Below, piece by piece: positions 1-13,043 of a DNA stretch of 13,043 bases. The position numbers and the translations under genes were made by a program. The DNA comes from Candidatus Hodarchaeota archaeon (GTDB lineage Archaea; Asgardarchaeota; Heimdallarchaeia; Hodarchaeales; Hodarchaeaceae). The first letter of the stretch is position 1. The number at the start of each line of letters is the position of its first letter. The notes under the pieces were generated by a model, which was given only the letters and a program-made list of their open reading frames with translations, was not told where the DNA came from and ran no database searches. Location: NCBI GenBank assembly GCA_016840035.1, contig JAEOTC010000259.1:1-13043 (forward strand), read 5' to 3'.

Positions 1-347
1 AAACTCAGGATCGCTGTAATTCCCACCTTTTTAGGGTCTGTAAATTCGCTTGGTTCACCTTTGTGGAAGAGATAGCTTGCTAGTTTACCCAATCCAAAAT
101 TACAATATTTTCCGAAGTAGTAACAGTTGATGCAGCGAAATTTCATACTAACTACAAGTGAACTCCCAGCAAGAATTAAATAAAAAACACTTAGAAGAGG
201 ATGAAGAAAAAATACAACGATAGCTCCAGCTAAGTAACTTAAGATGGTCAAAGAAGCAGATATACAGACAATCTTGATAGGATAAGATTCTAATTTTGTA
301 AGAGCTTGGCCCAAAGAATCACCATTAGTATATGAATTATGATGCAA
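1..347 (-). CDS. Partial (runs off window) hypothetical membrane protein with CxxCYYxGxxC motif
   Basis: Not in ORF track. Manual translation from TTG at 347 (in-frame TAA directly upstream) is open to the window edge: MHHNSYTNGDSLGQALTKLESYPIKIVCISASLTILSYLAGAIVVFFLHPLLSVFYLILAGSSLVVSMKFRCINCYYFGKYCNFGLGKLASYLFHKGEPSEFTDPKKVGITAILS... Two hydrophobic segments are followed by a Cys cluster. Start codon uncertain. Confidence 0.8.
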   Translation of the reverse strand, partial: MHHNSYTNGDSLGQALTKLESYPIKIVCISASLTILSYLAGAIVVFFLHPLLSVFYLILAGSSLVVSMKFRCINCYYFGKYCNFGLGKLASYLFHKGEPSEFTDPKKVGITAILS

Positions 348-349
348 TT

Positions 350-384
350 ATTCGCTTTTATTGAATTTAAAAAAAATTCGCTTT
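350..384 (-). promoter_or_regulatory. Putative archaeal promoter (TATA-like TTTTAAA) flanked by direct repeats AAAGCGAAT
   Basis: Minus strand reads AAAGCGAAT-TTTTTTTAAATTCAATA-AAAGCGAAT-AA-TTG. The TATA-like element lies ~20-27 nt upstream of the TTG start, consistent with a leaderless transcript. Confidence 0.45.
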
Positions 385-399
385 GTAACTCAAGAGACA

Positions 400-632
400 C
401 ACCAACATCAAATACAATTGGATCTAGTATCGTTCTTCCGATTCAAAAGTTAACTCATCCTCACTACTATTTATCTGTTTGACCCTTTCCATTCAGTTAT
501 TCCATTATTAGTATTAAGTACATTCTTTGGTTTACTATAATCTATTACTACCCCAACAACAATTTCAGCTGTAGGATTATCCCCCAAAGATCAGCAAGTA
601 ATCTGAAGACTTCTATTCCAAAGCACTTTCAT
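400..632 (-). pseudogene. Possible decayed FG-GAP/VCBS-like beta-propeller gene fragment
   Basis: Minus-strand frames give KVLWN, LADL(frame change)GDNPTAEIVVG, VLNTNNGITEW and DPIVFDV. These resemble the ADLxGDxxxEIVVG repeat but are broken by stops and frame changes. Confidence 0.25.
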
Positions 633-743
633 TTTTTACTTGTATTTAAAGTCATTAGGGTTCTGATAATGGAATAAGACTGCCTCTAAGTTAGATCTTT
701 TATACCTATGATTTATTTATTCAAGATGTAAAACGAATCAATG

Positions 744-801
744 TATAAAAAATAATATAAGACTACTCGTGAATTGATTTCCTGTAAACAGGATTAGGGA
801 G
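744..801 (+). promoter_or_regulatory. Promoter region of ABC operon: TATA-like tract, palindrome TCCTGT-AA-ACAGGA (780-793), SD-like AGGGAG (796-801)
   Basis: TATAAAAAATAATATAA at 744-760; perfect 6+6 inverted repeat at 780-793; purine-rich SD-like site ~10 nt before TTG 812. Confidence 0.5.
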
Positions 802-811
802 AGTATAATCT

Positions 812-3800
812 TTGCTATATGTAATTAAACAATCACTGAAAGTTATTAGTCGTCGTAAACGTAATTTTGTCCTCACATCATTTGTGGTTGCCCTTGGAAT
901 TTCTCTGGTTGTTCAGACCCAGATTTTGGAAGGAACTATTGAGAGAAATTATAAAGATATCATGATTGAATCTTTTGGGAATACTGATCTTATTGTATAT
1001 TCTGTTAATCAAATTTATTTTCCTCAAAATGTTTCCACTACTCTTATTCAAGAGTATGCTATTGAATTTGAGGGAATATTCCCTCAGATCTCATATTCCA
1101 TCAATACATATTATCCTGAAAAAGGTCAGTTTGAGCAAAATGTAGCTCTTGAAACGATTGGTACTGACTTTAACACAACATTCTGGGGAGGAATCTATTC
1201 AAATTCAAGTAACCAAGAGATAGATATAAGTTTACTCGGAAATGAAGAGATAGTTATCTCTCCCGAATTAGCCAACTCCTTGAAAACGAATATTGGGTCT
1301 CAAATCACAATAAATTTACTTGATGAGTATGGAAATCCTTTCTACCATAATGTTACTATCAAGGAGATTTACGACTACATCGATTATGGAAGAACTGGTG
1401 ATCCAAATGATTTTAGGAGAGTTTTCATGAGTGAAAAAGCAGTTCAATCACTTATTCCCACAACTATAGATAATCCAATAACTAATATCGTAATAGGGAT
1501 TGAAGATCATGTGGATACCCCCTTTTTAGGACGAGAAAAAAGTGATGAAGCTAAAGAACTAGTTCAGAGTGTTCTTACCCAAGATTATCCTGATTATATG
1601 CTCGAAGTTTATAGCATTCGAGAAGACAGTAGAGAGAATCTAGAGGAGGGTGTTTCTGGTTTTACTAGCATATTTCAAATGTTTGGAATCGTTGTGGTCA
1701 TTGCAGGCTTATTGTTAATCACAAATATTCAGTTAATGAATATGGAGGAACGTGAACAACAAATTGGTATGCTTCGTGCTATTGGGGCTAAAAAACGTGA
1801 AATTTTCTTCTCATATGCAATAGAAACAATACTAATAGGAGTTTTAGGTGGAATTTTTGGTCTTCTACTTGGAATAGGAATTGGCGTCTGGTTAAATGGT
1901 ATAAGTAGAGACATGTTATCTGCCATGGGAAATCCAGAAATATCAAAATCCATCTTTGATATAGTTGTAGAACCTGATACATTAATTTTATCCATTATTG
2001 CTGCCGTTGTATTATCAGTAGTTACTGGTATGGTTCCTGCACTACGGGCTCGTGGAATTTCAATTATTGAAATTGTAAGAGGAACAAAGACAAAAACAAA
2101 GACTACAACATTAAATGGAAAAAGACCTTTATGGCCTTTTTTAATTGGTGGATTATTTATCTTTCTTGGGTTAACAACCTTAATTGATCTAATTCAAACA
2201 GGTCATCCTTTCTATTCGCCAGAAGGTTTTCGAAATATTGAAGAAGAAGCAGCACGAAACTTTGAAGCATTATTCTATATCGGTTTAGGAATCATTTTTC
2301 TAAGCTTCAGGTTCCAACGCTACCGAAGAGCAAGTCTGTCAATAGGGGGATTACTATTAATTTCCCTTACAATTTGGGGGTTTCAGATAGCTATCGATTG
2401 GGCAAATGAAGGTGGAAACGCGAATAATATTGCAATTACTGGATTACTAGCTGCAGTAATTGGTGCTACAACCATTGTGGGAACAAATCTGGAATCTCTT
2501 ACAGCACAACTTAGAAAAGGCTTTACTTTATCTAAGAGAACTAGAGCAACTGGATTAGTAGCTACACGGTATATAAATGCCCGGAAATCACGAGCTGTCT
2601 TAACCTTCGCTACTTTTGCCGTTATTCTTTCTCTTAATTTTTTCATTGGATCCTATGCCGAAACACAGATTACTGGTTCAAGTCATACTTGGGAGCAGTA
2701 CATGTCTGGTGTATCCCTCGTAGTAGAATCTCAAACACCTTTCAATCTCTCAAAGCTTGATTATCCAGAAACTCTTCAAAATGAATTTGATGAAATTAAG
2801 CAGATTTATCCCTTAGAAGTTGGAATGATATTACCTTTTGATGGTGCTATCTCTGAAATTTCCCCAGAGGAAGATATTTTCTATTCCAAACTTGTTGCAA
2901 TTAATTGTTCTACCTTTATTAATGAAGAGGAAGAAGTTCTATTCCCTTTTACCTTTGAAAACATGCTAGCTAATTATTCCACCCTTTCAATGATCAATCG
3001 TTTAAAATATCGAGAAGCAGCTGTTGAAGAATCAAAAAACTTCTGGCAGGTTTTCTTAAATGGAAAAAAAATCCATAGAGAAACTAAATTACCAGTTGAT
3101 TCGGATAATCCGAACGGATTACCAATATTTCTTGGTGAACGCCTCTATTTCTTGGAAATCGGTGACATCGTAAGTTTTCCAGCCTCTAATGGGAGTCTTA
3201 TCGAGATGATATATGGTGGTTCAATGAATTATTTTCCGTCTTTCGATATGAGAATCAACGAATTCACCATCGGAATTATAGTCAGTAGTGAAATTGCTTC
3301 CCAATTTTCGATTCAGGGATATGGTATCAAAGAATTTCTAATCGAAACAACAAATGGTTACGAATATGATAAAAACAAGGCACTTAGTGGGAAAATAGAA
3401 GAATTTTCTAACAGCCAATCTTCAGAATCTTTGTTAACAATTGGAGATGGTACTTTTTATGGGATTACTGCTCATCATTTGTGGGATGTCTTTTATCACT
3501 CTTACGCTACTAACGCAAATGCACTGAATTTCTTACAAACATTTATAGCAACAGGTCTCATTATCGGTGTAATTGGTCTTTTAGTTGTCTCCCATCGCTC
3601 AGTAAAGGAACGAAAAAGAGAAATCGGTATGTTACGATCAGTTGGTTTTTCTAAAAAAGCAGTATCTCTTGCAGTATTGCTGGAACTATTATTTTTAGGA
3701 ATTCTAGGGTTTTTGGTCGGTTTCCTAACAGGAAACTATCTTGCCTGGGTTTTTGCAGATCTAGTGAATTGGAATTTAGTGATTCCGTGGGTTCAAGTAA

Positions 3801-3907
3801 GTCTCTATGGAATTTTCATTATAGGATCTGTTGTTATTGCCGCTTTAATACCAGGCTGGTTAGCTGCACGAATTCCTCCAAGTGAGGCCTTAAGATATCA
3901 TGGATAG
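812..3907 (+). CDS. FtsX/MacB-like ABC transporter permease, internally duplicated (two extracellular domains, two FtsX TM modules)
   Basis: 1031-aa ORF. N-terminal RRKRNFVLT + TM; two FtsX signatures (EEREQQIGMLRAIGAKKREI and KERKREIGMLRSVGFSKKAV); second-half start KSRAVLTFATFAVIL; C-terminal PGWLAARIPPSEALRY; followed by LolD-type ATPases. Confidence 0.93.
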   Translation: MLYVIKQSLKVISRRKRNFVLTSFVVALGISLVVQTQILEGTIERNYKDIMIESFGNTDLIVYSVNQIYFPQNVSTTLIQEYAIEFEGIFPQISYSINTYYPEKGQFEQNVALETIGTDFNTTFWGGIYSNSSNQEIDISLLGNEEIVISPELANSLKTNIGSQITINLLDEYGNPFYHNVTIKEIYDYIDYGRTGDPNDFRRVFMSEKAVQSLIPTTIDNPITNIVIGIEDHVDTPFLGREKSDEAKELVQSVLTQDYPDYMLEVYSIREDSRENLEEGVSGFTSIFQMFGIVVVIAGLLLITNIQLMNMEEREQQIGMLRAIGAKKREIFFSYAIETILIGVLGGIFGLLLGIGIGVWLNGISRDMLSAMGNPEISKSIFDIVVEPDTLILSIIAAVVLSVVTGMVPALRARGISIIEIVRGTKTKTKTTTLNGKRPLWPFLIGGLFIFLGLTTLIDLIQTGHPFYSPEGFRNIEEEAARNFEALFYIGLGIIFLSFRFQRYRRASLSIGGLLLISLTIWGFQIAIDWANEGGNANNIAITGLLAAVIGATTIVGTNLESLTAQLRKGFTLSKRTRATGLVATRYINARKSRAVLTFATFAVILSLNFFIGSYAETQITGSSHTWEQYMSGVSLVVESQTPFNLSKLDYPETLQNEFDEIKQIYPLEVGMILPFDGAISEISPEEDIFYSKLVAINCSTFINEEEEVLFPFTFENMLANYSTLSMINRLKYREAAVEESKNFWQVFLNGKKIHRETKLPVDSDNPNGLPIFLGERLYFLEIGDIVSFPASNGSLIEMIYGGSMNYFPSFDMRINEFTIGIIVSSEIASQFSIQGYGIKEFLIETTNGYEYDKNKALSGKIEEFSNSQSSESLLTIGDGTFYGITAHHLWDVFYHSYATNANALNFLQTFIATGLIIGVIGLLVVSHRSVKERKREIGMLRSVGFSKKAVSLAVLLELLFLGILGFLVGFLTGNYLAWVFADLVNWNLVIPWVQVSLYGIFIIGSVVIAALIPGWLAARIPPSEALRYHG

Positions 3908-3919
3908 GTGTGTGAGAAG

Positions 3920-4603
3920 ATGACTGATGATATTCTAATTTTAGAAGATTTACACAAGATCTATGGGGAAGGAACCCCTAATTCCGTTCATGCTTTACGA
4001 GGGATTAATCTAAAGATCAAGCGTGGTGAAATGGTCGCAATTATGGGTCCTTCAGGTTGTGGTAAGACCACTATGCTCAATATATGTGGTGGTCTGGATA
4101 TTCCGACCTCGGGGTCAGTAAAAATTAATGGTGTTGATATTTCTACCTATAATGACACACAAATGACTAATTTTCGTCGTGATAACATTGGATATGTCTT
4201 TCAGCTGTTCAATTTATTCGATTATATGAATGCTCAAGAAAATGTTATGATTCCCTTGTTAGCACAGGGAATGAGTTATTCAGAGGCAACTCGTAGAGCA
4301 ACAATGATCTTACGTGAAGTTGGATTAGGAGACAGGCTTTATCAGGCACCAAGTGAGTTATCAGGCGGCCAACAGCAGAGAGTAGCGGTTTCACGAGCAT
4401 TAGTGACTCATCCAGTATTGATAATGGGTGATGAACCCACAGGAGATTTGGATTCAATAACTTCTGAAGATATTATGGATATGTTTCGACGGATAAATAC
4501 TGACAATAATCAGACTCTTATCCTTGTTACTCATTCAAAATGGATAGGAGATCAATGTGATCGGATTATATATCTCCGTGATGGTCGTGTTGTAGGAGAG
4601 TGA
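3920..4603 (+). CDS. ABC transporter ATP-binding protein, LolD/MacB/FtsE family
   Basis: Walker A GPSGCGKTT, Q-loop IGYVFQ, signature LSGGQQQR, Walker B/D-loop IMGDEPTGDLD, H-loop VTH. ATG 3920 is preferred over GTG 3908 because AGGTG (3906-3910) sits 9 nt upstream of it. Confidence 0.95.
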   Translation: MTDDILILEDLHKIYGEGTPNSVHALRGINLKIKRGEMVAIMGPSGCGKTTMLNICGGLDIPTSGSVKINGVDISTYNDTQMTNFRRDNIGYVFQLFNLFDYMNAQENVMIPLLAQGMSYSEATRRATMILREVGLGDRLYQAPSELSGGQQQRVAVSRALVTHPVLIMGDEPTGDLDSITSEDIMDMFRRINTDNNQTLILVTHSKWIGDQCDRIIYLRDGRVVGE

Positions 4604-6453
4604 TTAAGATACACAATAAAGATAATTTGAGTAATGAGCTACTTGTAGGTTTCCTTATAGATAAGTTCGATCAGCCTGGAAATAAAAAGCTTCAGAAAAA
4701 ATTACACAAATTATTAAAAAAAGGATTTAAGGATAAAAAAACTAAACCCAAAGTTTTAGAATTTAATACTTTCATGTTAGCGAATATAAGTGGCAGTAAT
4801 GGTCACTTTAATCAATCTGAAGCAAGAATATCTCTAGAAAAATCCCTGTATTCATTATACAAAGATTATGTGAAACGAACATCAAAACGTTTCCGTTCTC
4901 GAACTAAGCGTAACCGTTCTGAGCTTGAATCACATAAAATTCTAGCTAAATTTCTTTCCTCGATTCCAAATTCCCCAGATAATCCTGAAGAGATTATTAC
5001 CCGAGAAAATCGTAAAATGATCAATTTTCTTGAAAAGAATTTTCTTCATATAATAGAACGATCATGGATCATCTTTTGGGCGTTTAAACAGAAGGGGGAA
5101 GATCGCATCATTGTGGAGGATAAGGTATATCATCGTAATTACGATTTACAAACTTCATCCTCTGGATTACACGCTTTTGATGAATTATTAATACTAAACT
5201 TTGCCCATCCGTTTTTAAAATCCTTAAATCGTCTTCTTCAGGATACTATCAGTCGTGTAGATAATATAAGGGATGCATTTGACGGATCGGATACCTTAGA
5301 AATTATTAATCCTGATTTAACTTCAGAAGCACTTGGGATTCTTGGAGGAGACCTAGTTGGTGGAATAGATGCAGTCCGTACAATTGTGAGACAAATCAAT
5401 AGGATTGAAGAGATTCAAACGAGTTCTAAACAAGAAATCGAAATTCTTAATGGATTTGGAGACGAGATTAGAAAGACAGTAAATAATGGAAAGAACCTTG
5501 CTGACATAAGGTCTAGTTTTAAGAACATCATTGAAGTATTAATGGATCTGCAAATCCTAGTTCGTGACCTAAATAAACAAGCATTAGAAGGAAGAATTGA
5601 GGTTAATCTCGAAAAATTCCATTCAGCAATAATAGAATTACCAATTCAATTACGGGAGGTAAAAATTTGGGCGGATCGATTCATGGATATAGCTTTCTTG
5701 TCCCCAGAATCAGGAGAAGTTGCTCTAACTTCATCGAAGGATGAATTTCTGTCTGAATATCAAGATGACAAGGAAATTATCGTCGAAGCCAGGGGTCTTC
5801 ATAAAACATACAGACCATTTTCGAGTACAATATATGCTTTGAGAGGTTCAAATTTAACTGTAAAGAGAGGAGAATTCCTGTTAATATTGGGGCCTTCGGG
5901 ATCGGGGAAAACTACACTAATAAATATGATGGCTGGGATAGACATGCCAGATCGGGGAAAAGTTTACCTCGAAGGAAGATCTATCTCATCAATGAGTGAT
6001 AACGAGCTATCAGAATTTCGTAGAAATCATATCGGATTTGTTTTTCAGAACTATTTACTCGATCCTCGATTATCAGTGTATGAGAATGTAGCACTTCCAG
6101 CTATTATAGCTGGGAAGACAAACCAATTGCATACACGTGTCCATGAATTACTAGATAGCCTTGGATTAAAGAACTATGCAAATCAGGACCCCACAAAACT
6201 CTCAGGTGGACAGATGCAACGGACTATTATCGCCAGGTCAGTTATTAATAATCCTCTCGTTGTGTTCGCAGATGAACCAACTGGGGATTTAGACAGTGAA
6301 ACGGGAAAGCAGGTGCTAGCTAAGTTCCGAAAACTCTGTGATGACAAAAAAATTGCTTTCGTTGTAGTCACTCACGATCGTGAGGTGTCGTCTTTTGCAG
6401 ATCGAATAGTACACATGAAAGATGGGCAGATAATTGAAAAATCCTTCAGTTGA
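4600..6453 (+). CDS. ABC transporter ATP-binding protein (LolD family) with ~390-aa N-terminal extension of unknown function
   Basis: GTGA start/stop overlap with the previous gene. The C-terminal ~225 aa carry GPSGSGKTT, IGFVFQ, LSGGQMQR, VFADEPTGDLD and VTHD. The N-terminal 392 aa are soluble and helical-looking, and I do not recognise them. Confidence 0.9.
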   Translation: MIKIHNKDNLSNELLVGFLIDKFDQPGNKKLQKKLHKLLKKGFKDKKTKPKVLEFNTFMLANISGSNGHFNQSEARISLEKSLYSLYKDYVKRTSKRFRSRTKRNRSELESHKILAKFLSSIPNSPDNPEEIITRENRKMINFLEKNFLHIIERSWIIFWAFKQKGEDRIIVEDKVYHRNYDLQTSSSGLHAFDELLILNFAHPFLKSLNRLLQDTISRVDNIRDAFDGSDTLEIINPDLTSEALGILGGDLVGGIDAVRTIVRQINRIEEIQTSSKQEIEILNGFGDEIRKTVNNGKNLADIRSSFKNIIEVLMDLQILVRDLNKQALEGRIEVNLEKFHSAIIELPIQLREVKIWADRFMDIAFLSPESGEVALTSSKDEFLSEYQDDKEIIVEARGLHKTYRPFSSTIYALRGSNLTVKRGEFLLILGPSGSGKTTLINMMAGIDMPDRGKVYLEGRSISSMSDNELSEFRRNHIGFVFQNYLLDPRLSVYENVALPAIIAGKTNQLHTRVHELLDSLGLKNYANQDPTKLSGGQMQRTIIARSVINNPLVVFADEPTGDLDSETGKQVLAKFRKLCDDKKIAFVVVTHDREVSSFADRIVHMKDGQIIEKSFS

Positions 6454-6490
6454 GAGTTTTCATCCGATTGTTGTCTAATTACACCGTTAG

Positions 6491-8539
6491 CTACATCTTT
6501 TCTTTTTTTCGAGAAACTACCACGAGTGTACTAAATACAATGAGTACCAATAACACTCCCGGGGATGTACTTGCTGTTGGTTCGATGGTTGAGGTTTCAG
6601 AGGAGATAGAACTTGTTTCTTTTCCAGGATAATCAGTCGGGTCATTCGGATCGGTACCAGAATAAACTTCAATGCTATCTAAGAAGCCATCGTTGTCAGA
6701 GTCATCATCTAATGGGTCGGTACCAATTTTAATCTCAAACGCGTCATTCAAGTTATCAGAATCGGTGTCTTGCATGACTAGATTTGTACCATAAGTTAAT
6801 TCATCCAGATCTGAGAGACCATCATAATCAGTATCTCCGATGTTTATTCCCAACTGCTCAATAATAGCGATGAGCTCCGAAAATTGAGTAATACTACTAG
6901 CATTAAGTGTCTGTAAATATTGCTCATTACCTGTTGCAAGGGCGTAAACGGTGTTAATTAATGTGGCATTACCATCAGCCCAAGTAATAAGCTGGTTGAT
7001 TACAGTTATGTTCCCCTCTAAATATGTTAAAAGGGTATTATAGTCTTCTTGCCAAAGGAGTGGAAAATTATTTTTGTCTAATGGATCACTGCCATACGTA
7101 TGTTCGTAACCATCCAGAAAATTGTCACCATCCGTATCTACCAAAATAGGACTGGTTCCCATTACGATTTCCTGCGTATCAGTTAGACCATCATGATCAA
7201 TATCGTAATTTCCAATTGGATAGAAAAAATTCGTATATATTTCGTTATTGACTAAACTCCCAGTTATATCATTGTCTCCATTATCCCATATCCAATTACT
7301 ATGAATGCGATTACCAGTGGAAGACGATAAATAAAGACCATAATTAGTATTATTACTTAGAACATTAGTAGTAAGGGAGTTACCCGAAGCAATAGAAAGA
7401 AAGATCCCATACTCACTATTACTATCACAAATGTTTCTAGTAATAGTATTAGCTGATGAAACTTCCAAATGAATACCGTAATACTCGTTATTACTGCATA
7501 AATTGCTGGTTAAAGTATTAGAGCTAGATGATAAGTAGATACCACTTTCAGAATTATTATTACATTTATTGGATATAAGGACAGTATCCGATGAGCTAGA
7601 ACTTAAACTTATACCATTAAATCTATTATTTTGACAAGAATTATTGATCAAAGTAGTGGATGGGGAGTAATTAGATATCCCATTTTCATCATTATTATTA
7701 AAAACATTGTTCATAAGAGTAGTTGAAGGTGAAGATTGGTAGATACCACTATTATGATTTCCTTTGCATATATTATTGGAAAAAACGTTCAGAGGTGAAT
7801 CTAGATTCGCAATACCATATTGCCAATTATTCGAAAAATTATTACTTGTTATGGTGCTGGATGGACTGTCCATAAAGAAGAGCCCATGAGAATTATTAAT
7901 AGCTGTATTATTAAGAAGAATATTGGAGGAACTTGAACTAAGAGAGAAACCGATACTATTGTTGATAGCAGTGTTGTTGATAAATGTATTCGAATTACTA
8001 GAGATTATTTCAATACCATTTTGCATGTTGTCGTTACAGGCATTATTGATAGCAATAATAGAAGAACATAAATAAAGATAAATACCATGGTTATTGTTTA
8101 TACACATATTATTCCTTATTAGTCCGTTAGTTACATTAAACATTAAAATAGCTGTAGTAGCTAACGAACTTGAGTTAATAAGCGTACAGTTCACGATTCT
8201 AAAGTGTTTTGTAGTGCCCTGAATCGAAATACAGTCAGTTACTCTTTCTCCATCTATTAAAAAGTTAGCAATGATGTAAGGATGTTCTTCAGTTCCATCT
8301 CCATCACTAACTCCATTAGCAATTGTAAATCCCTCATCACCGATAATGGTTATCGGATCATGAGTAATTAAATTAGTTATCCCAACAATACGATTTGTAA
8401 GAAATAAATTGTTATCCCCTTCATCGCTATTTTCAATATTTGAACTAAATCCTTGAAGTGAACTACAATTTAGCAATAAAAATGTGATATAAAGAAAAAA
8501 AATAAAACCTTTCCAATCTTTACCATTATCCATTAACAT
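6491..8539 (-). CDS. Cell-surface glycoprotein: signal peptide, right-handed parallel beta-helix (NosD/CASH-type repeats), TSP3-like DxDxDGxxDxxE Ca-binding repeats, S/T linker, C-terminal TM + basic tail (PGF/Heimdall-CTERM-like)
   Basis: 682-aa ORF. Hydrophobic N-terminus; HDPITI.GD...GDGTEEHPYII cap; ~22-aa NxxxNNxxxGIxLxxSxxN repeats; DIDHDGLTD, DTDGDNFLD, DTDYDGLSD, DTDSDNLND, DSDNDGFLD with GTxP spacers; tail TSPGVLLVLIVFSTLVVVSRKKEKM; many NxS/T sequons. Confidence 0.88.
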   Translation of the reverse strand: MLMDNGKDWKGFIFFLYITFLLLNCSSLQGFSSNIENSDEGDNNLFLTNRIVGITNLITHDPITIIGDEGFTIANGVSDGDGTEEHPYIIANFLIDGERVTDCISIQGTTKHFRIVNCTLINSSSLATTAILMFNVTNGLIRNNMCINNNHGIYLYLCSSIIAINNACNDNMQNGIEIISSNSNTFINNTAINNSIGFSLSSSSSNILLNNTAINNSHGLFFMDSPSSTITSNNFSNNWQYGIANLDSPLNVFSNNICKGNHNSGIYQSSPSTTLMNNVFNNNDENGISNYSPSTTLINNSCQNNRFNGISLSSSSSDTVLISNKCNNNSESGIYLSSSSNTLTSNLCSNNEYYGIHLEVSSANTITRNICDSNSEYGIFLSIASGNSLTTNVLSNNTNYGLYLSSSTGNRIHSNWIWDNGDNDITGSLVNNEIYTNFFYPIGNYDIDHDGLTDTQEIVMGTSPILVDTDGDNFLDGYEHTYGSDPLDKNNFPLLWQEDYNTLLTYLEGNITVINQLITWADGNATLINTVYALATGNEQYLQTLNASSITQFSELIAIIEQLGINIGDTDYDGLSDLDELTYGTNLVMQDTDSDNLNDAFEIKIGTDPLDDDSDNDGFLDSIEVYSGTDPNDPTDYPGKETSSISSETSTIEPTASTSPGVLLVLIVFSTLVVVSRKKEKM
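6498..6509 (+). terminator. Candidate oligo(T) terminator for the ABC operon
   Basis: TTTTCTTTTTTT ~45 nt after the TGA at 6453. It lies inside the 3' end of the convergent gene. Confidence 0.35.
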
Positions 8540-8576
8540 TCATTCCTGTGTCTTTCTATAGGTATCAATCCTCCAG

Positions 8577-8715
8577 AATAGACTTTAAGCACTATAAAAA
8601 TGTTTGTCTCTTCTTCGAATTCAATAGCATTAGTATCGTTGTTATATTGAAGAAAGTAGGGATCTCATTATTCCACAAAGAGAATAGATTAAAAAAAGTG
8701 CTTAATCAGTCTATT
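8577..8715. repeat. Imperfect 17-bp inverted repeat pair in divergent intergenic region
   Basis: AATAGACTTTAAGCACT (8577-8593) vs AGTGCTTAAtcAGTCTATT (8697-8715): exact reverse complement apart from a 2-nt insertion. Confidence 0.6.
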
Positions 8716-8970
8716 ATTCAATTCAAACGGAAGTTATATTTTTAATATCCAGTACTAAATTTATTAGGGGGAAGAGCTGACCAATAAGTTGACTTAACTC
8801 TAAGAAACAGAGCTAATGAAACTTTACCACTATAATAAACTTATTAAAGAAGTCTATTTCTCATTCAACCAGAGTAAAATAGTTAGAACTAGTGGTAATT
8901 TATGGTCTAACCTTAAATTGTTAAAAGATCTGAAAAACTGCTCAAAATTAATAAATTTCCAATTAAGATA

Positions 8971-8990
8971 AGTGCAAATATTAAATTACT
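8971..8990 (+). promoter_or_regulatory. Candidate BRE/TATA for the radical SAM operon
   Basis: AGTGCAAATATTAAATTACT ~30-40 nt upstream of GTG 9019. The AT-rich context lowers specificity. Confidence 0.3.
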
Positions 8991-9018
8991 TTTGATTTTA
9001 GTTGACAGTACGTGAAAG

Positions 9019-10185
9019 GTGGCAAAAATAGGTTCTTTGGAAAAAAAAATTGAGATATTAGGAGATGCAAGCAAGTTCGACGTTTGTGCATCCATGGCTT
9101 CCTCCCGTATACCAAGAGAAAAAAACCGGATTGGGAAACCTGACAAAGCAGGAATTTGTCACGCATTTACTCCTGATGGTCGCTGTATCAGTCTTTTCAA
9201 AGTCCTGATGACAAACAAATGTGCATACGATTGTCTGTACTGTAAGAATAGCTGTATAAATCAAAAATCTACGGCGATGTTCGAACCAGATGAATTAGTG
9301 AAAGCATTTATTGGATTACACCTTAGAAATTATGTTGAAGGCCTTTTTCTGTCTAGTGGGGTTTGGAGAAACACAACTGAAACAGCAGAAAAAATGATTG
9401 AAGCATTATCCATTATTCGTAAGAAATACCTTTATCAAGGGTATATGCACATAAAGATTCTTCCAGGAACTGACAGAGAATATATTACACAATTCCAAGA
9501 ATTAGCTGATCGTGTAAGTCTAAATGTTGAGCTTCCAACAGCTTCCCATCTATCAGAGGTATCCTCAACTAAAAGTTACTATTCGGACATTTTAAAGTGT
9601 CAAAACTATATAAAACAAAATATAGACAAAGGCTTAACTCCTGCAGGACAAACCACACAGTTTGTTATTGGTTCAACAAACGAAACTGATCGGGAAGTAA
9701 TTGAAAGACTCCTTTGGGAATATCAATACCTCGATATCAGACGTGGATATTTTTCAGCATTTATCCCTGTTAAGGGGACGGATTTAGGTAAAAAGAAAGT
9801 AGATAGAGTTGAATTAAAAACACGAGAGAACTTTCTTTATCGTGTTGACTGGCTTGCAAGACGATATCAGTATACAAAAGAGGAAATTTATTCTATTCTG
9901 AATGAAGAAGATATGATACCACTAGCTATAGACCCCAAAATAGCTGTTGCGTTACAAGACGATCGATTCCCAATTGATGTTAATGAAGCGTCTTACACAG
10001 ATTTATTAAGAGTACCAGGAATTGGAGAGACATCAGCAAGGAGAATAATAAACCTTCGCAAAGTGAAGCAAAAAATTGAGAACTATCGGGATTTAAGAAG
10101 AGTTGGTTCAGTAGTTCAGCGAGCAAAGCCCTTCTTAATAGTGGATGGAAAAAAAATGACCAGAATAATTGATTACTTGGTCTGA
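9019..10185 (+). CDS. Putative DNA modification/repair radical SAM protein with C-terminal helix-hairpin-helix (TIGR03916/COG4277 type)
   Basis: N-terminal KIEILGDASKFDVC; GICHAFTPDGRCISLFKVLMTNKCAYDCLYC (CxxxCxxC); YVEGLFLSSG; GYMHIKILPG; ADRVSLNVELP; PAGQTTQFVIG; YFSAFIPV; LDPK-like IDPK; HhH DVNEASYTDLLRVPGIGETSARRII. Confidence 0.93.
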   Translation: MAKIGSLEKKIEILGDASKFDVCASMASSRIPREKNRIGKPDKAGICHAFTPDGRCISLFKVLMTNKCAYDCLYCKNSCINQKSTAMFEPDELVKAFIGLHLRNYVEGLFLSSGVWRNTTETAEKMIEALSIIRKKYLYQGYMHIKILPGTDREYITQFQELADRVSLNVELPTASHLSEVSSTKSYYSDILKCQNYIKQNIDKGLTPAGQTTQFVIGSTNETDREVIERLLWEYQYLDIRRGYFSAFIPVKGTDLGKKKVDRVELKTRENFLYRVDWLARRYQYTKEEIYSILNEEDMIPLAIDPKIAVALQDDRFPIDVNEASYTDLLRVPGIGETSARRIINLRKVKQKIENYRDLRRVGSVVQRAKPFLIVDGKKMTRIIDYLV

Positions 10186-10190
10186 TTTCA

Positions 10191-10793
10191 ATGCAAAGAT
10201 TTATCTGCAAAGAGGAGGTCATTAGTTCCCTCAAACGACATCGACAAGTCACCCCTGAATATATTCGTAAAATTGAAAGAATACCAAGGCAAGTGTTAGA
10301 AAATGTAGGAACCGATTTAGCTAAAGAAGCAGCTGCATTAAGTAGGGAAGTAGATAGCGATCTACACGCACATAAGGCATTTTTACGTCTATCTATCTCA
10401 CCGCATGGAATAATCTATGCACGCTTAGATAAAATGAAACATAGGAATGAAAAACCATTACTTAAATTCTACTCAGAACGCTTTCCCATATACACCGTGT
10501 TATTTGGTTCGAAAAGAGGAGTTTTTGGAGCGAAGAATGGGACTACCCTCATCTTAGAAAAAGGAACGCTAGAAGAATCTTTGAATAAATTAGAAGCGAG
10601 TTTACCTCTCGATCCATTACTTACTGGAATAGAAAACCAAAACCATGAGGAATTATGGGAAAGATTTGCTAAATCACAGCTTATTAAAGGAGCTCAGACT
10701 TCAAGCCAGATGAAATCACTAGCAAGAAAATGGAAGAATACTGTTGCTAAAAAAGACTCAAAAAACCAATCTTTAGAAAAATATCTTAATTAG
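10191..10793 (+). CDS. DUF4130/TIGR03915-like partner of the radical SAM protein (short, divergent)
   Basis: Starts 5 nt after the rSAM stop. EVDSDLHAHKAFLRL, YARL..KH, FYSERFP and EELWERFAKS resemble the family motifs VxRExHxMKxFxRF, HFxxRF and EELWxxYxxS. The gene order is the conserved one. Confidence 0.75.
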   Translation: MQRFICKEEVISSLKRHRQVTPEYIRKIERIPRQVLENVGTDLAKEAAALSREVDSDLHAHKAFLRLSISPHGIIYARLDKMKHRNEKPLLKFYSERFPIYTVLFGSKRGVFGAKNGTTLILEKGTLEESLNKLEASLPLDPLLTGIENQNHEELWERFAKSQLIKGAQTSSQMKSLARKWKNTVAKKDSKNQSLEKYLN

Positions 10794-10923
10794 TATAATT
10801 TACTCCACGACTCTTATCTTGAAGAGTATATATCAAATTCTAAACTGGTTAACCAAGACTACAAATTCAAAGGGTAGGATAATGGTCCCCAAGTTTGGAT
10901 ATTCAGAACTATCTATGTAGGAA

Positions 10924-11754
10924 TCATTCGATTAGTTCCGTTAGACCACTAGCATTTTCAATTAAATCTACTAGATACGCTGAAAAACGAGCAGCAGGAC
11001 CCCCATCAATAATATCATGGTCAAGAGAGATTGTTATCTGTAAACATTGTTCTTCCCTAATAGAATCACCAGATTTAACGAGTTTTTGAGTGATTCCACC
11101 AATTGCAAAATTGAGCGGAGTTATCCCACCAAATCCACCTACCCACCCACGAGTATTTGTAAACATACCAACTGAAGTAACCACAATTAACCCTCCCTGT
11201 TTCTTAATGGTAAAAGGATTTTTAATAATTCGTCTTATCAGTCTTTGACGTATGAAGGCTGGAATAAACGGATATAGTTTGATAAGTATTCCCCGATCAA
11301 GAAGCTGATTTTCCTCAGTAACTTCCATACTTTGTGCAGCCCGAATCTCCCTAGAAATGGTTAATAAATCTTTTTTTGTGGTTTTTCGAACCGAATAAGG
11401 GACCGGAATGACTTTGTCTTGTAATTGTCGTTCCACCATGACAATAATATCAATGTCATCAAACGTTACAAGCTTTTTTCTCCCTTTTCGATAAGAATTA
11501 AATTCTGGAAATTGAAGAACAGCATCACTTATACACTTAACAATCCAAGATGTGAAAGAAATTTTTTGCCCAGTCTTCTCTGAAAACTTGTTTATCAATT
11601 CTTTACCTTTAGATACAGTAACTTCAATGTAACCTATGGAATAATGCTTCTTTAAAAATTCATCATAAAGATCACTGAGAATTTGTCGATTGGTGGGAAA
11701 ATCTGTAAGATGGTAATTTCCAAGTATGTTTTCTGACTCTATTGGTGATGACAT
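10924..11754 (-). CDS. 2-oxoacid dehydrogenase E2-like acyltransferase, catalytic domain only
   Basis: KISFTSWIVKC, FPEFNS, VTSVGMF, FAIGGI and catalytic HxxxDG (DHDIIDGGPAARF). No lipoyl or subunit-binding domain. SD GGAGG upstream of ATG 11754. Confidence 0.9.
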   Translation of the reverse strand: MSSPIESENILGNYHLTDFPTNRQILSDLYDEFLKKHYSIGYIEVTVSKGKELINKFSEKTGQKISFTSWIVKCISDAVLQFPEFNSYRKGRKKLVTFDDIDIIVMVERQLQDKVIPVPYSVRKTTKKDLLTISREIRAAQSMEVTEENQLLDRGILIKLYPFIPAFIRQRLIRRIIKNPFTIKKQGGLIVVTSVGMFTNTRGWVGGFGGITPLNFAIGGITQKLVKSGDSIREEQCLQITISLDHDIIDGGPAARFSAYLVDLIENASGLTELIE

Positions 11755-11935
11755 TCAGTAGCCTCCATATAATAACGTTAGATTCTTTACTCTTTGATGT
11801 TTCTTTCTTCTTCTTTGCACTTCCTCCTATTTTTGACTATGTATCTTTTGCATATAACAAATTGATACAAAACGGGAGAACTAAGATAAACAACATAAAG
11901 CTCCCAATTTCTTAAAAAGAAATCTCTGTGGCGAA

Positions 11936-12292
11936 TTAGGCTTCAAATACTGATAAAGTCTTACGAAAATCAGCCGACTCATGCTCTTGATCGACATTTT
12001 CCACACGATAAGTAATCCCTGTTTTTCGTTGGAGTGCGATAGCTGAATGTGCGCCAACGAATTTGGATCGGATCGAAGCAGTCGTACCAACCCACAAAAA
12101 GATTTTTCGATAGACATCATTAACGAAAAGATAAACCATATCCTCATTCAATGGTTCTGAAGAGAAAGGAATAGGGTGGATTTTATCAGGATGGGTTTGC
12201 ACACAAAAAAGATGAATATTTTGTCTTGCAACAGGTTTCAGATGACTATTAGCAGATTCAATCGGTTTTATGATGGGGAGATTGTGAAACAT
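11936..12292 (-). CDS. Single-domain gelsolin/villin-like protein (Asgard 1DGel-type candidate actin regulator)
   Basis: LNEDMVYLFVND...IFLWVGTTASIRSKFVGAHSA...RVENVDQEHESADF matches the gelsolin repeat pattern LNxxDxFILD...IFxWxGxxSxxxE/K...A...V.QGxExxxF. GAGGA lies upstream of the ATG. Confidence 0.8.
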   Translation of the reverse strand: MFHNLPIIKPIESANSHLKPVARQNIHLFCVQTHPDKIHPIPFSSEPLNEDMVYLFVNDVYRKIFLWVGTTASIRSKFVGAHSAIALQRKTGITYRVENVDQEHESADFRKTLSVFEA

Positions 12293-12305
12293 CTACAGAT
12301 CCTCT

Positions 12306-12360
12306 ATTAGAGTTAAAAACCTATGAAGAGATTGTAATTAGAGTTAAACTTACCTCTGAA
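12306..12360. repeat. Imperfect tandem direct repeat upstream of the gelsolin-like gene
   Basis: ATTAGAGTTAAA at 12306-12317 and 12337-12348 (31-nt period), followed by ACCTATGAA and ACCTCTGAA respectively. Confidence 0.7.
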
Positions 12361-12504
12361 CACCTCCAAGGTTTTCGCATTTAAATATCATCAAAAGATG
12401 TCCAGAACATCCCTTCTCGCTTTGCACGAAATCAATCAAACTCCCTACACAGATATTTTTTCTAACCTGTGAACTCCGTCAAAAGCTGACTTAGATTAGA
12501 AAAG

Positions 12505-12525
12505 TATAAACAAAGGTAAATATTA
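12505..12525 (+). promoter_or_regulatory. Candidate BRE/TATA for leaderless DinB-family transcript
   Basis: CAAAGG-TAAATATT ~20-27 nt upstream of ATG 12544; no SD visible. Confidence 0.35.
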
Positions 12526-12543
12526 TCTGTTTCTGTGAAATAT

Positions 12544-13043
12544 ATGGCACAACAGACAACGGTTCAGATGTTGATATGGCAATTAGAAGGTTGGTTTCAA
12601 GAATTAGTTCAAATTTTATCCGAAATCTCGAAGGAAGAGGCGAAATGGAAACCTACAGCTAAATCTAAAACATTTGACGTACTTGACCAGTTTTATGGGA
12701 AACGAAAAGACTGGATTTCAGAACACTTTCTTGACCCCATCTGTACAATCGAATATAAAGTAGTCCATTTAGCACAAAATAAGCAAAAGTATAATGAATA
12801 CGCGTTTAGGGAGGGGAGTCAGAAATGGATAGATCTCAAATGTCCAGAATGGCCCCACTGTATCGATTATTTGAAACAAACTCAGAAAAGATTAGTTGAG
12901 AACCTTCAAAATCTGACAGATGAACAATTGGATGATAAGATAGATACTCGTAGGGATGAGTTGTGGCCAATGAAAAGAATAATCTCAACCTTGATCTTTC
13001 ACGATGCATATCATTTTGGTCAAATAAATACTATAAGAAATTT
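12544..13043 (+). CDS. Partial DinB/YfiT-like four-helix-bundle protein (putative metal-dependent enzyme)
   Basis: Not in ORF track. Manual translation is open to the window end: MAQQTTVQMLIWQLEGWFQELVQILSEISKEEAKWKPT...TIEYKVVHLAQ...LQNLTDEQLDD...WPMKRIISTLIFHDAYHFGQINTIRN. It has the DinB motifs W.P, TIxxxxxH, LTDEQL and HxxYHxGQI. Confidence 0.88.
   Translation, partial: MAQQTTVQMLIWQLEGWFQELVQILSEISKEEAKWKPTAKSKTFDVLDQFYGKRKDWISEHFLDPICTIEYKVVHLAQNKQKYNEYAFREGSQKWIDLKCPEWPHCIDYLKQTQKRLVENLQNLTDEQLDDKIDTRRDELWPMKRIISTLIFHDAYHFGQINTIRN

Follow-up and report, generated by a model that had tools for sequence, protein, structure and literature searches.

A radical SAM–DUF4130 gene pair of a Hodarchaeota archaeon with PIP-box-like tails on both subunits, a predicted client of PCNA

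Gene pairs encoding a radical SAM enzyme of the TIGR03916 family and a DUF4130 protein are widespread in bacteria and archaea, and the family has no known reaction. One such pair lies in a stretch of 13,043 nucleotides (‘the window’; positions 1 to 13,043, forward strand, of contig JAEOTC010000259.1, GenBank assembly GCA_016840035.1) from a Candidatus Hodarchaeota archaeon, and each of its two proteins ends in a short segment resembling a PCNA-interacting protein (PIP) box. A preliminary description proposed, from the letters of the window, that both tails bind the sliding clamp PCNA, in place of the beta-clamp motif of many bacterial relatives. Does this locus encode a DNA enzyme that works on PCNA? 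The pair is probably an enzyme of DNA repair or modification tethered to the clamp, with a PIP tail on each subunit through which binding to PCNA is predicted.

Clients of the bacterial beta clamp carry a pentapeptide with the consensus QL[SD]LF. The principle considered here is the same (a short C-terminal peptide that tethers a DNA enzyme to a ring clamp), except that the window would carry the archaeal counterpart of this peptide, the beta motif being found in the bacterial orthologues only. Accepted archaeal PCNA clients (RNase HII, NucS/EndoMS, the large subunit of replication factor C (RFC), family-B polymerases (PolB), FEN1) likewise have xxx[LI]xx[FYW][FLW] at the extreme C-terminus, often past basic residues. 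The present pair differs from them in being built around a radical SAM enzyme and in having a tail on both subunits; moreover, the tail of the enzyme stands directly past a helix-hairpin-helix (HhH) domain, without a long linker.

In the literature, DUF4130 has been linked to SplB-like radical SAM enzymes and uracil-DNA glycosylases (UDGs) (PMC3765255), a bacterial COG1573–COG4277 operon has been reported as SOS-regulated and as a putative base-excision system (PMC8565304), and a 2026 preprint predicts a radical SAM–DUF4130 heterodimer with a large interface and a narrow nucleic-acid channel. A search for papers on TIGR03916, COG4277 or radical SAM enzymes with clamp-binding, PIP or PCNA motifs found none.

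The gene pair and its tails

The features of the pair, all on the forward strand, are as follows.

9019–10185 (+): radical SAM/HhH enzyme, 388 amino acids, GTG start; TIGR03916, COG4277
9220–9243 (+): CX3CX2C radical SAM cluster motif (C68, C72, C75), each cysteine unchanged in alignments of 26 and of 109 homologues
9973–10104 (+): HhH DNA-binding domain, residues 319–362 (Pfam HHH_3, E = 9.5e-10)
10156–10182 (+): PIP-box-like tail of the enzyme, M380-T-R-I383-I-D-Y386-L387-V388, after KK; stop codon 10183–10185
10191–10793 (+): DUF4130 partner, 200 amino acids, starting 5 bases past the stop codon of the enzyme
10764–10790 (+): PIP-box-like tail of the partner, N192-Q-S-L195-E-K-Y198-L199-N200, after a lysine-rich linker; stop codon 10791–10793

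The enzyme scores 369.8 bits against NCBIfam TIGR03916, above the cut-off of 343.5, and covers positions 1–382 of the 415 in the model, the unmatched part being the C-terminal extension of bacterial members. Pfam recognizes both a Radical_SAM and an HHH_3 domain. Among solved structures, the sole sequence match is a ComEA-related HhH protein (2duy), and the fold search against the Protein Data Bank returned generic radical SAM barrels (HydE, the biotin synthase BioB, viperin, MiaB), which give no clue to the substrate; the best of them are not spore photoproduct lyase (SplB). SplB is also a radical SAM enzyme acting on DNA, and the literature groups the present family loosely with it, but it is a characterised DNA repair enzyme belonging to COG1533, a different family from COG4277. 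Upstream of CX3CX2C, the enzyme contains C23, C47, H48 and C56 (residues 23–56; 9085–9186, forward strand), of which C23 and C47 are invariant in both alignments, while H48 and C56 are invariant in the 26 homologues and present in at least 90% of the 109; this Cys/His set points to an additional metal or iron-sulfur site in the N-terminal part of the protein.

The partner reaches 34.8 bits against Pfam DUF4130 (cut-off 27) and 30.7 bits against TIGR03915, below the cut-off of 112.25, with positions 76–229 of 243 in the latter model matched; by these profile scores it is a short, divergent archaeal form of DUF4130. Its fold search yielded no match at E ≤ 0.001; the weak matches, at E 0.01–0.1, are DHH/DHHA1 proteins (GdpP, RecJ), in loose agreement with the claim of the 2026 preprint, and a sequence search of solved structures gave chance-level GntR matches only. 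The closest homologues of both proteins belong to Asgard archaea (Hod-, Heimdall-, Thor- and Promethearchaeota). The two genes represent the archaeal form of a conserved radical SAM–HhH (TIGR03916/COG4277) and DUF4130 pair.

Translation of 9019–10185 ends in ...DGKK-MTRIIDYL-V*, with the codon of M380 beginning at 10156, and that of 10191–10793 in ...DSK-NQSLEKYL-N*, with the codon of N192 beginning at 10764, exactly as the preliminary description had read them. Both tails fit x-x-x-[LI]-x-x-Y-L plus one residue, with one or more lysines before. The core of a PIP box is present in each: I383 at position 4 and Y386-L387 at positions 7–8 in the enzyme, L195 and Y198-L199 at the same positions in the partner. 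Each subunit would accordingly end in a PIP box defined by leucine or isoleucine at position 4 and an aromatic residue followed by leucine or phenylalanine at positions 7–8.

Conservation of the tails and the clamp of the host

Orthologues in archaea keep the tails of both proteins, as had been expected. A strict, Q-first pattern (Qxx[LIMV]xx[FYW][FYWLIM]) missed 11 of 18 archaeal loci on account of a variable position 8 and, in Thermoplasmata, D at position 1, and was replaced by an anchored one. With the latter, 128 of 132 archaeal-type TIGR03916 orthologues have xxx[LIMV]xx[FYW], always 4 residues past the last strand, and two of the four sequences without it are failures of the anchor pattern rather than true absences. 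Position 4 is L, I, M or V and position 7 F, W or Y in all 128; Q stands at position 1 in 103, and just two have M there, namely the protein of the window and its 92%-identical relative, so that, in this alignment, Q has given way to M in this lineage specifically.

Every one of the 48 archaeal partners carries xxx[LI]xx[FY] in its last 16 residues, even at 13–25% overall identity to the query. Position 8 is F or L in 38 of the 48, position 1 is never conserved, and the lysine-rich linker before the motif varies freely. The preliminary description had pointed out that position 1 is non-canonical in both tails (M and N), which is correct and, given this variation, matters little. Within the genus, an open reading frame (ORF) for a partner with a PIP-like tail adjoins the place of the enzyme in 10 of 11 enzyme-holding loci (no partner ORF was picked up at locus L133, the partner tail is masked at L134, and the enzyme ORF was missed by the pattern at L136).

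Could such endings be functionless resemblance? [LI]xx[FY][FL] with at most one trailing residue ends 39 of the 3433 host ORFs of at least 100 amino acids (1.1%), and about 0.4 adjacent pairs with this loose motif are expected by chance in the host genome, so a single pair of tails would carry little weight. Chance is ruled out by conservation of the motif across the orthologues of both proteins, very distant ones included, while the adjoining linkers vary; we consider this explanation extremely improbable.

Among the host ORFs that share the ending, moreover, accepted PCNA clients and further DNA enzymes are strongly over-represented:

RNase HII (host genome): ends ..KKLDRFL
NucS/EndoMS (host genome): ends ..KQLDDFLS
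RFC large subunit, beside the PCNA gene (host genome): ends ..KTLAEFF
two PolB family-B polymerases (host genome): end ..QVNLMEFFS and ..KLTIEEYL
DUF72 protein (contig C138, 3798–4481; locus L116): ends ..QMTLKEFFS
N6/N4 DNA methylase (contig C59, 6155–7081; locus L113): ends ..QPLDKFLQ
AP endonuclease 2-type protein (contig C29, 926–1876; locus L118): ends ..GNLDYYFS
DEAD-box helicase (host genome): same PIP-like ending

Several of the accepted clients also lack Q at position 1. The ending shared with PCNA clients thus indicates a working PIP signature in this host, one that often lacks Q and may end in YL. The DUF72 protein, the N6/N4 methylase and the AP endonuclease 2-type protein are candidate further PCNA clients of the host.

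Bacterial members of the family carry a different peptide. A scan of named genomes gave 80 loci, including 60 complete bacterial enzymes and 18 loci labelled archaeal. Q[LMIF]x[LF][FI] occurs in the last 45 residues of 47 of the 60 bacterial enzymes (QLELF, QLSLF, QMELF, QLSFF), often as the final residues, and is absent from all 18 archaeal-labelled loci; most of the remaining bacterial enzymes have variants such as QLTLPL, QISLW and QLSLDEF. The QLxLF-type motif that the preliminary description had named for bacterial members is thereby borne out. Only one of 57 bacterial partners has a clamp motif: these proteins, either ∼250 amino acids long or ∼480 (presumably the UDG-fused form described in the literature), end right past a conserved MPK[KR]YW region, the point beyond which the archaeal partner tail is an extension. 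The bacterial TIGR03916/TIGR03915(-UDG) module thus has the same radical SAM–HhH enzyme and, as at the archaeal loci, DUF4130 downstream of it, but places a QLxLF-type peptide on the enzyme and none on the partner, whereas the archaeal pair has a PIP tail on each; the archaeal partner (∼200 amino acids) lacks the N-terminal third of TIGR03915 and the UDG and has the tail in addition.

The clamps follow the same division. The host assembly (4.3 Mb, 87% complete) has one PCNA gene, and DnaN was not found in it at that completeness; together with the Asgard homologues this agrees with the archaeal host that had been supposed. Among the genomes checked, those with PIP-type enzymes have PCNA in seven of seven and DnaN in none of seven, and those with beta-type enzymes have DnaN in four of five and PCNA in none of five. 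As far as gene content tells, the type of clamp peptide matches the clamp of the host. A metagenome-assembled genome (MAG) labelled as a bacterium, Candidatus Deferrimicrobium (G031; locus L003, DATKTP010000212.1), which has PCNA and no DnaN, was considered as an exception and rejected. Its radical SAM/DUF4130 pair is Helarchaeota-like and bears PIP tails, and the MAG looks like a mislabelled or mis-binned archaeal genome.

This match bears on the possibility that the tails dock on some other PIP-reading factor of the archaeal replisome or repair machinery instead of PCNA. PIP-like motifs of eukaryotes can bind more than one partner, and the motif of the DUF4130 protein lacks Q at position 1, both of which lend that possibility some room. 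Against it, motif type goes with whichever clamp the genome encodes, bacteria have a classic beta-clamp peptide at the corresponding place, and a complex model (below) puts the enzyme tail at the canonical site of PCNA; we regard docking elsewhere as improbable.

In an unrooted FastTree phylogeny of 113 enzymes, all archaeal-type sequences form one clade (support 98). Two small bacterial groups, of Margulisiibacteriota/Omnitrophota and Calditrichota/Sporomusa type, lie closer to this clade than to the main bacterial one, and both have beta-type motifs; motif type therefore follows the clamp of the host rather than mere sequence proximity among the enzymes. As the tree is unrooted, the swap between beta clamp and PCNA may have gone in either direction. 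During labelling of the tree, an archaeal PIP box (QLTLD) also matched the looser beta-clamp pattern, which was set aside as coincidence. Enzymes of the first group combine two motifs:

Margulisiibacteriota/Omnitrophota-type enzymes (L010, 2501–3691; proteins P0086, P0107, P0110, P0111, P0116, P0121): Q-x-x-I-x-x-I-[MV] at the PIP position and K-QL[ET]LF (e.g. KQLELF) a few residues later

This combination may preserve a remnant of one type of clamp motif next to the other.

Modelled structures and the placement of the enzyme tail

In the AlphaFold2 model of the enzyme, the mean predicted local distance difference test score (pLDDT) is 91.8 and falls to ∼65 over the last 8 residues, which include a short helix (383–387); in that of the partner, residues 184–200 score below 50, with a short helix at 195–198, that is, at motif positions 4–7. 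A low-confidence tail with a short helix is what a PIP peptide usually looks like, and neither tail is buried in the predicted fold, in keeping with the earlier proposal.

A complex of enzyme residues 296–388 with host PCNA residues 1–256, both supplied as alignments, was modelled alongside three controls. It reached an ipSAE of 0.81 (runs 0.79, 0.81 and 0.82) where the best control gave 0.00; the mark applied to this score is reached by 58 of 80 solved complexes and by 2 of 110 mismatched pairs. The runs share at least 86% of contacts, and the pLDDT of the binding partner in the complex is at least 89. Enzyme residues 376–387 contact PCNA residues 43–50, 127–128, 232–233 and 249–256, that is, the hydrophobic pocket, the interdomain connecting loop and the C-terminal strand that make up the canonical PIP site, with I383 and Y386 packed against 43–50, 233 and 249–251. 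The proposed docking of the enzyme tail on host PCNA is thus reproduced by the model, in which the score is a measure of likeness to a PIP complex rather than proof that the copy in the window binds.

The chief rival is that the enzyme segment is partly structural: the tails would pack on the HhH domain of the enzyme or in the radical SAM–DUF4130 interface and merely resemble PIP boxes. Such packing would account for the fixed spacing of 4 residues between the last strand and the enzyme motif, and it fits the large interface predicted in the preprint. At the place of the enzyme motif, one bacterial group keeps Q-x-x-I-x-x-I-[MV] and Alphaproteobacteria keep W-R-P-x-x-L-x-D, and bacteria retain an aliphatic residue where archaea have position 4. 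However, each monomer model loses confidence at its tail, only archaea show the aromatic pair, the partner tail is an archaea-only extension, accepted PCNA clients of the host bear the same motif, and the complex model puts the enzyme tail in the PCNA pocket. On balance, a structural role for the tails in place of clamp binding seems unlikely, though it is the most serious of the alternatives.

Several points also weigh directly against a clamp-tethered pair. Neither tail has Q at position 1 (the enzyme has M, the partner N), and position 8 is a non-aromatic L. The enzyme motif begins 4 residues past the last strand without a long linker, a spacing so short that the HhH domain must sit against PCNA if the tail is docked, and that also allows a structural segment. 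The complex model covers the enzyme tail only and may pass by likeness, since solved structures include a great many PCNA–PIP complexes. All archaeal sequences belong to a single clade, so that the change of motif type counts as about one evolutionary event rather than many independent ones. Lastly, the module is patchy: it turned up in 11 of 18 genomes within the genus, and in 0 of 12 sampled from other genera of the class.

Proposed role and surrounding genes

In the reading that we prefer, a clamp-tethered pair, the PIP peptide would fit in the hydrophobic pocket that lies beneath the interdomain connecting loop of PCNA, of which the host has a single, homotrimeric one; the clamp would then deliver the enzyme to replication forks or repair patches on DNA. 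In bacterial members, a QLxLF-type beta-clamp peptide, on the radical SAM subunit only, would serve the same purpose. We infer binding to PCNA as such, docking of the partner tail and the biological function; a role in repair is put forward because the corresponding bacterial operon is reported to be SOS-regulated (PMC8565304). No UDG (PF03167) was found in the host genome, which is 87% complete.

More tentatively, and with considerable doubt, the heterodimer may be a bivalent client whose two PIP tails occupy two of the three identical sites on one PCNA ring, leaving the third for a polymerase or nuclease, with co-tethering in archaea in place of the covalent UDG-like fusion of bacteria. If so, it would be the first clamp-riding radical SAM enzyme, one that couples radical chemistry on DNA to replication in bacteria and archaea alike.

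A peptide type that switches with the clamp of the host is strong comparative evidence for action of the enzyme at clamp-loaded DNA. The link to the clamp would narrow the search for a substrate to sites such as replication forks and repair patches, and, going by the literature searched, would extend the known clients of sliding clamps to a radical SAM enzyme. The pair itself looks like an accessory module, patchily held: three genomes of the same genus (G002, G004, G014), with PCNA ∼96% identical to that of the host, have no match to the radical SAM protein.

The host PCNA (contig C167, locus L001, 1486–2349; the window is part of contig C256 in the same numbering) has a C-terminal tail of ∼30 residues consisting almost exclusively of D, E, Y and W. 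This acidic tail is kept in relatives of the same genus, with repeated DEDWDEDE-like units. The gene for the RFC large subunit lies directly downstream of the PCNA gene.

Other genes of the window are as follows.

11939–12292 (−): gelsolin ORF, 118 amino acids, Pfam Gelsolin repeat (E = 3e-8), 1.1 kb downstream of the pair
4600–6453 (+): ABC ATPase ORF, ATPase domain at residues 414–561, the ∼400 preceding residues without a Pfam match

The gelsolin repeat is a eukaryote-like cytoskeletal domain typical of Asgard archaea and is consistent with the host. The ORF at 4600–6453 stands in an operon with an FtsX/MacB-type permease (812–3907) and a second ABC ATPase (3908–4603).

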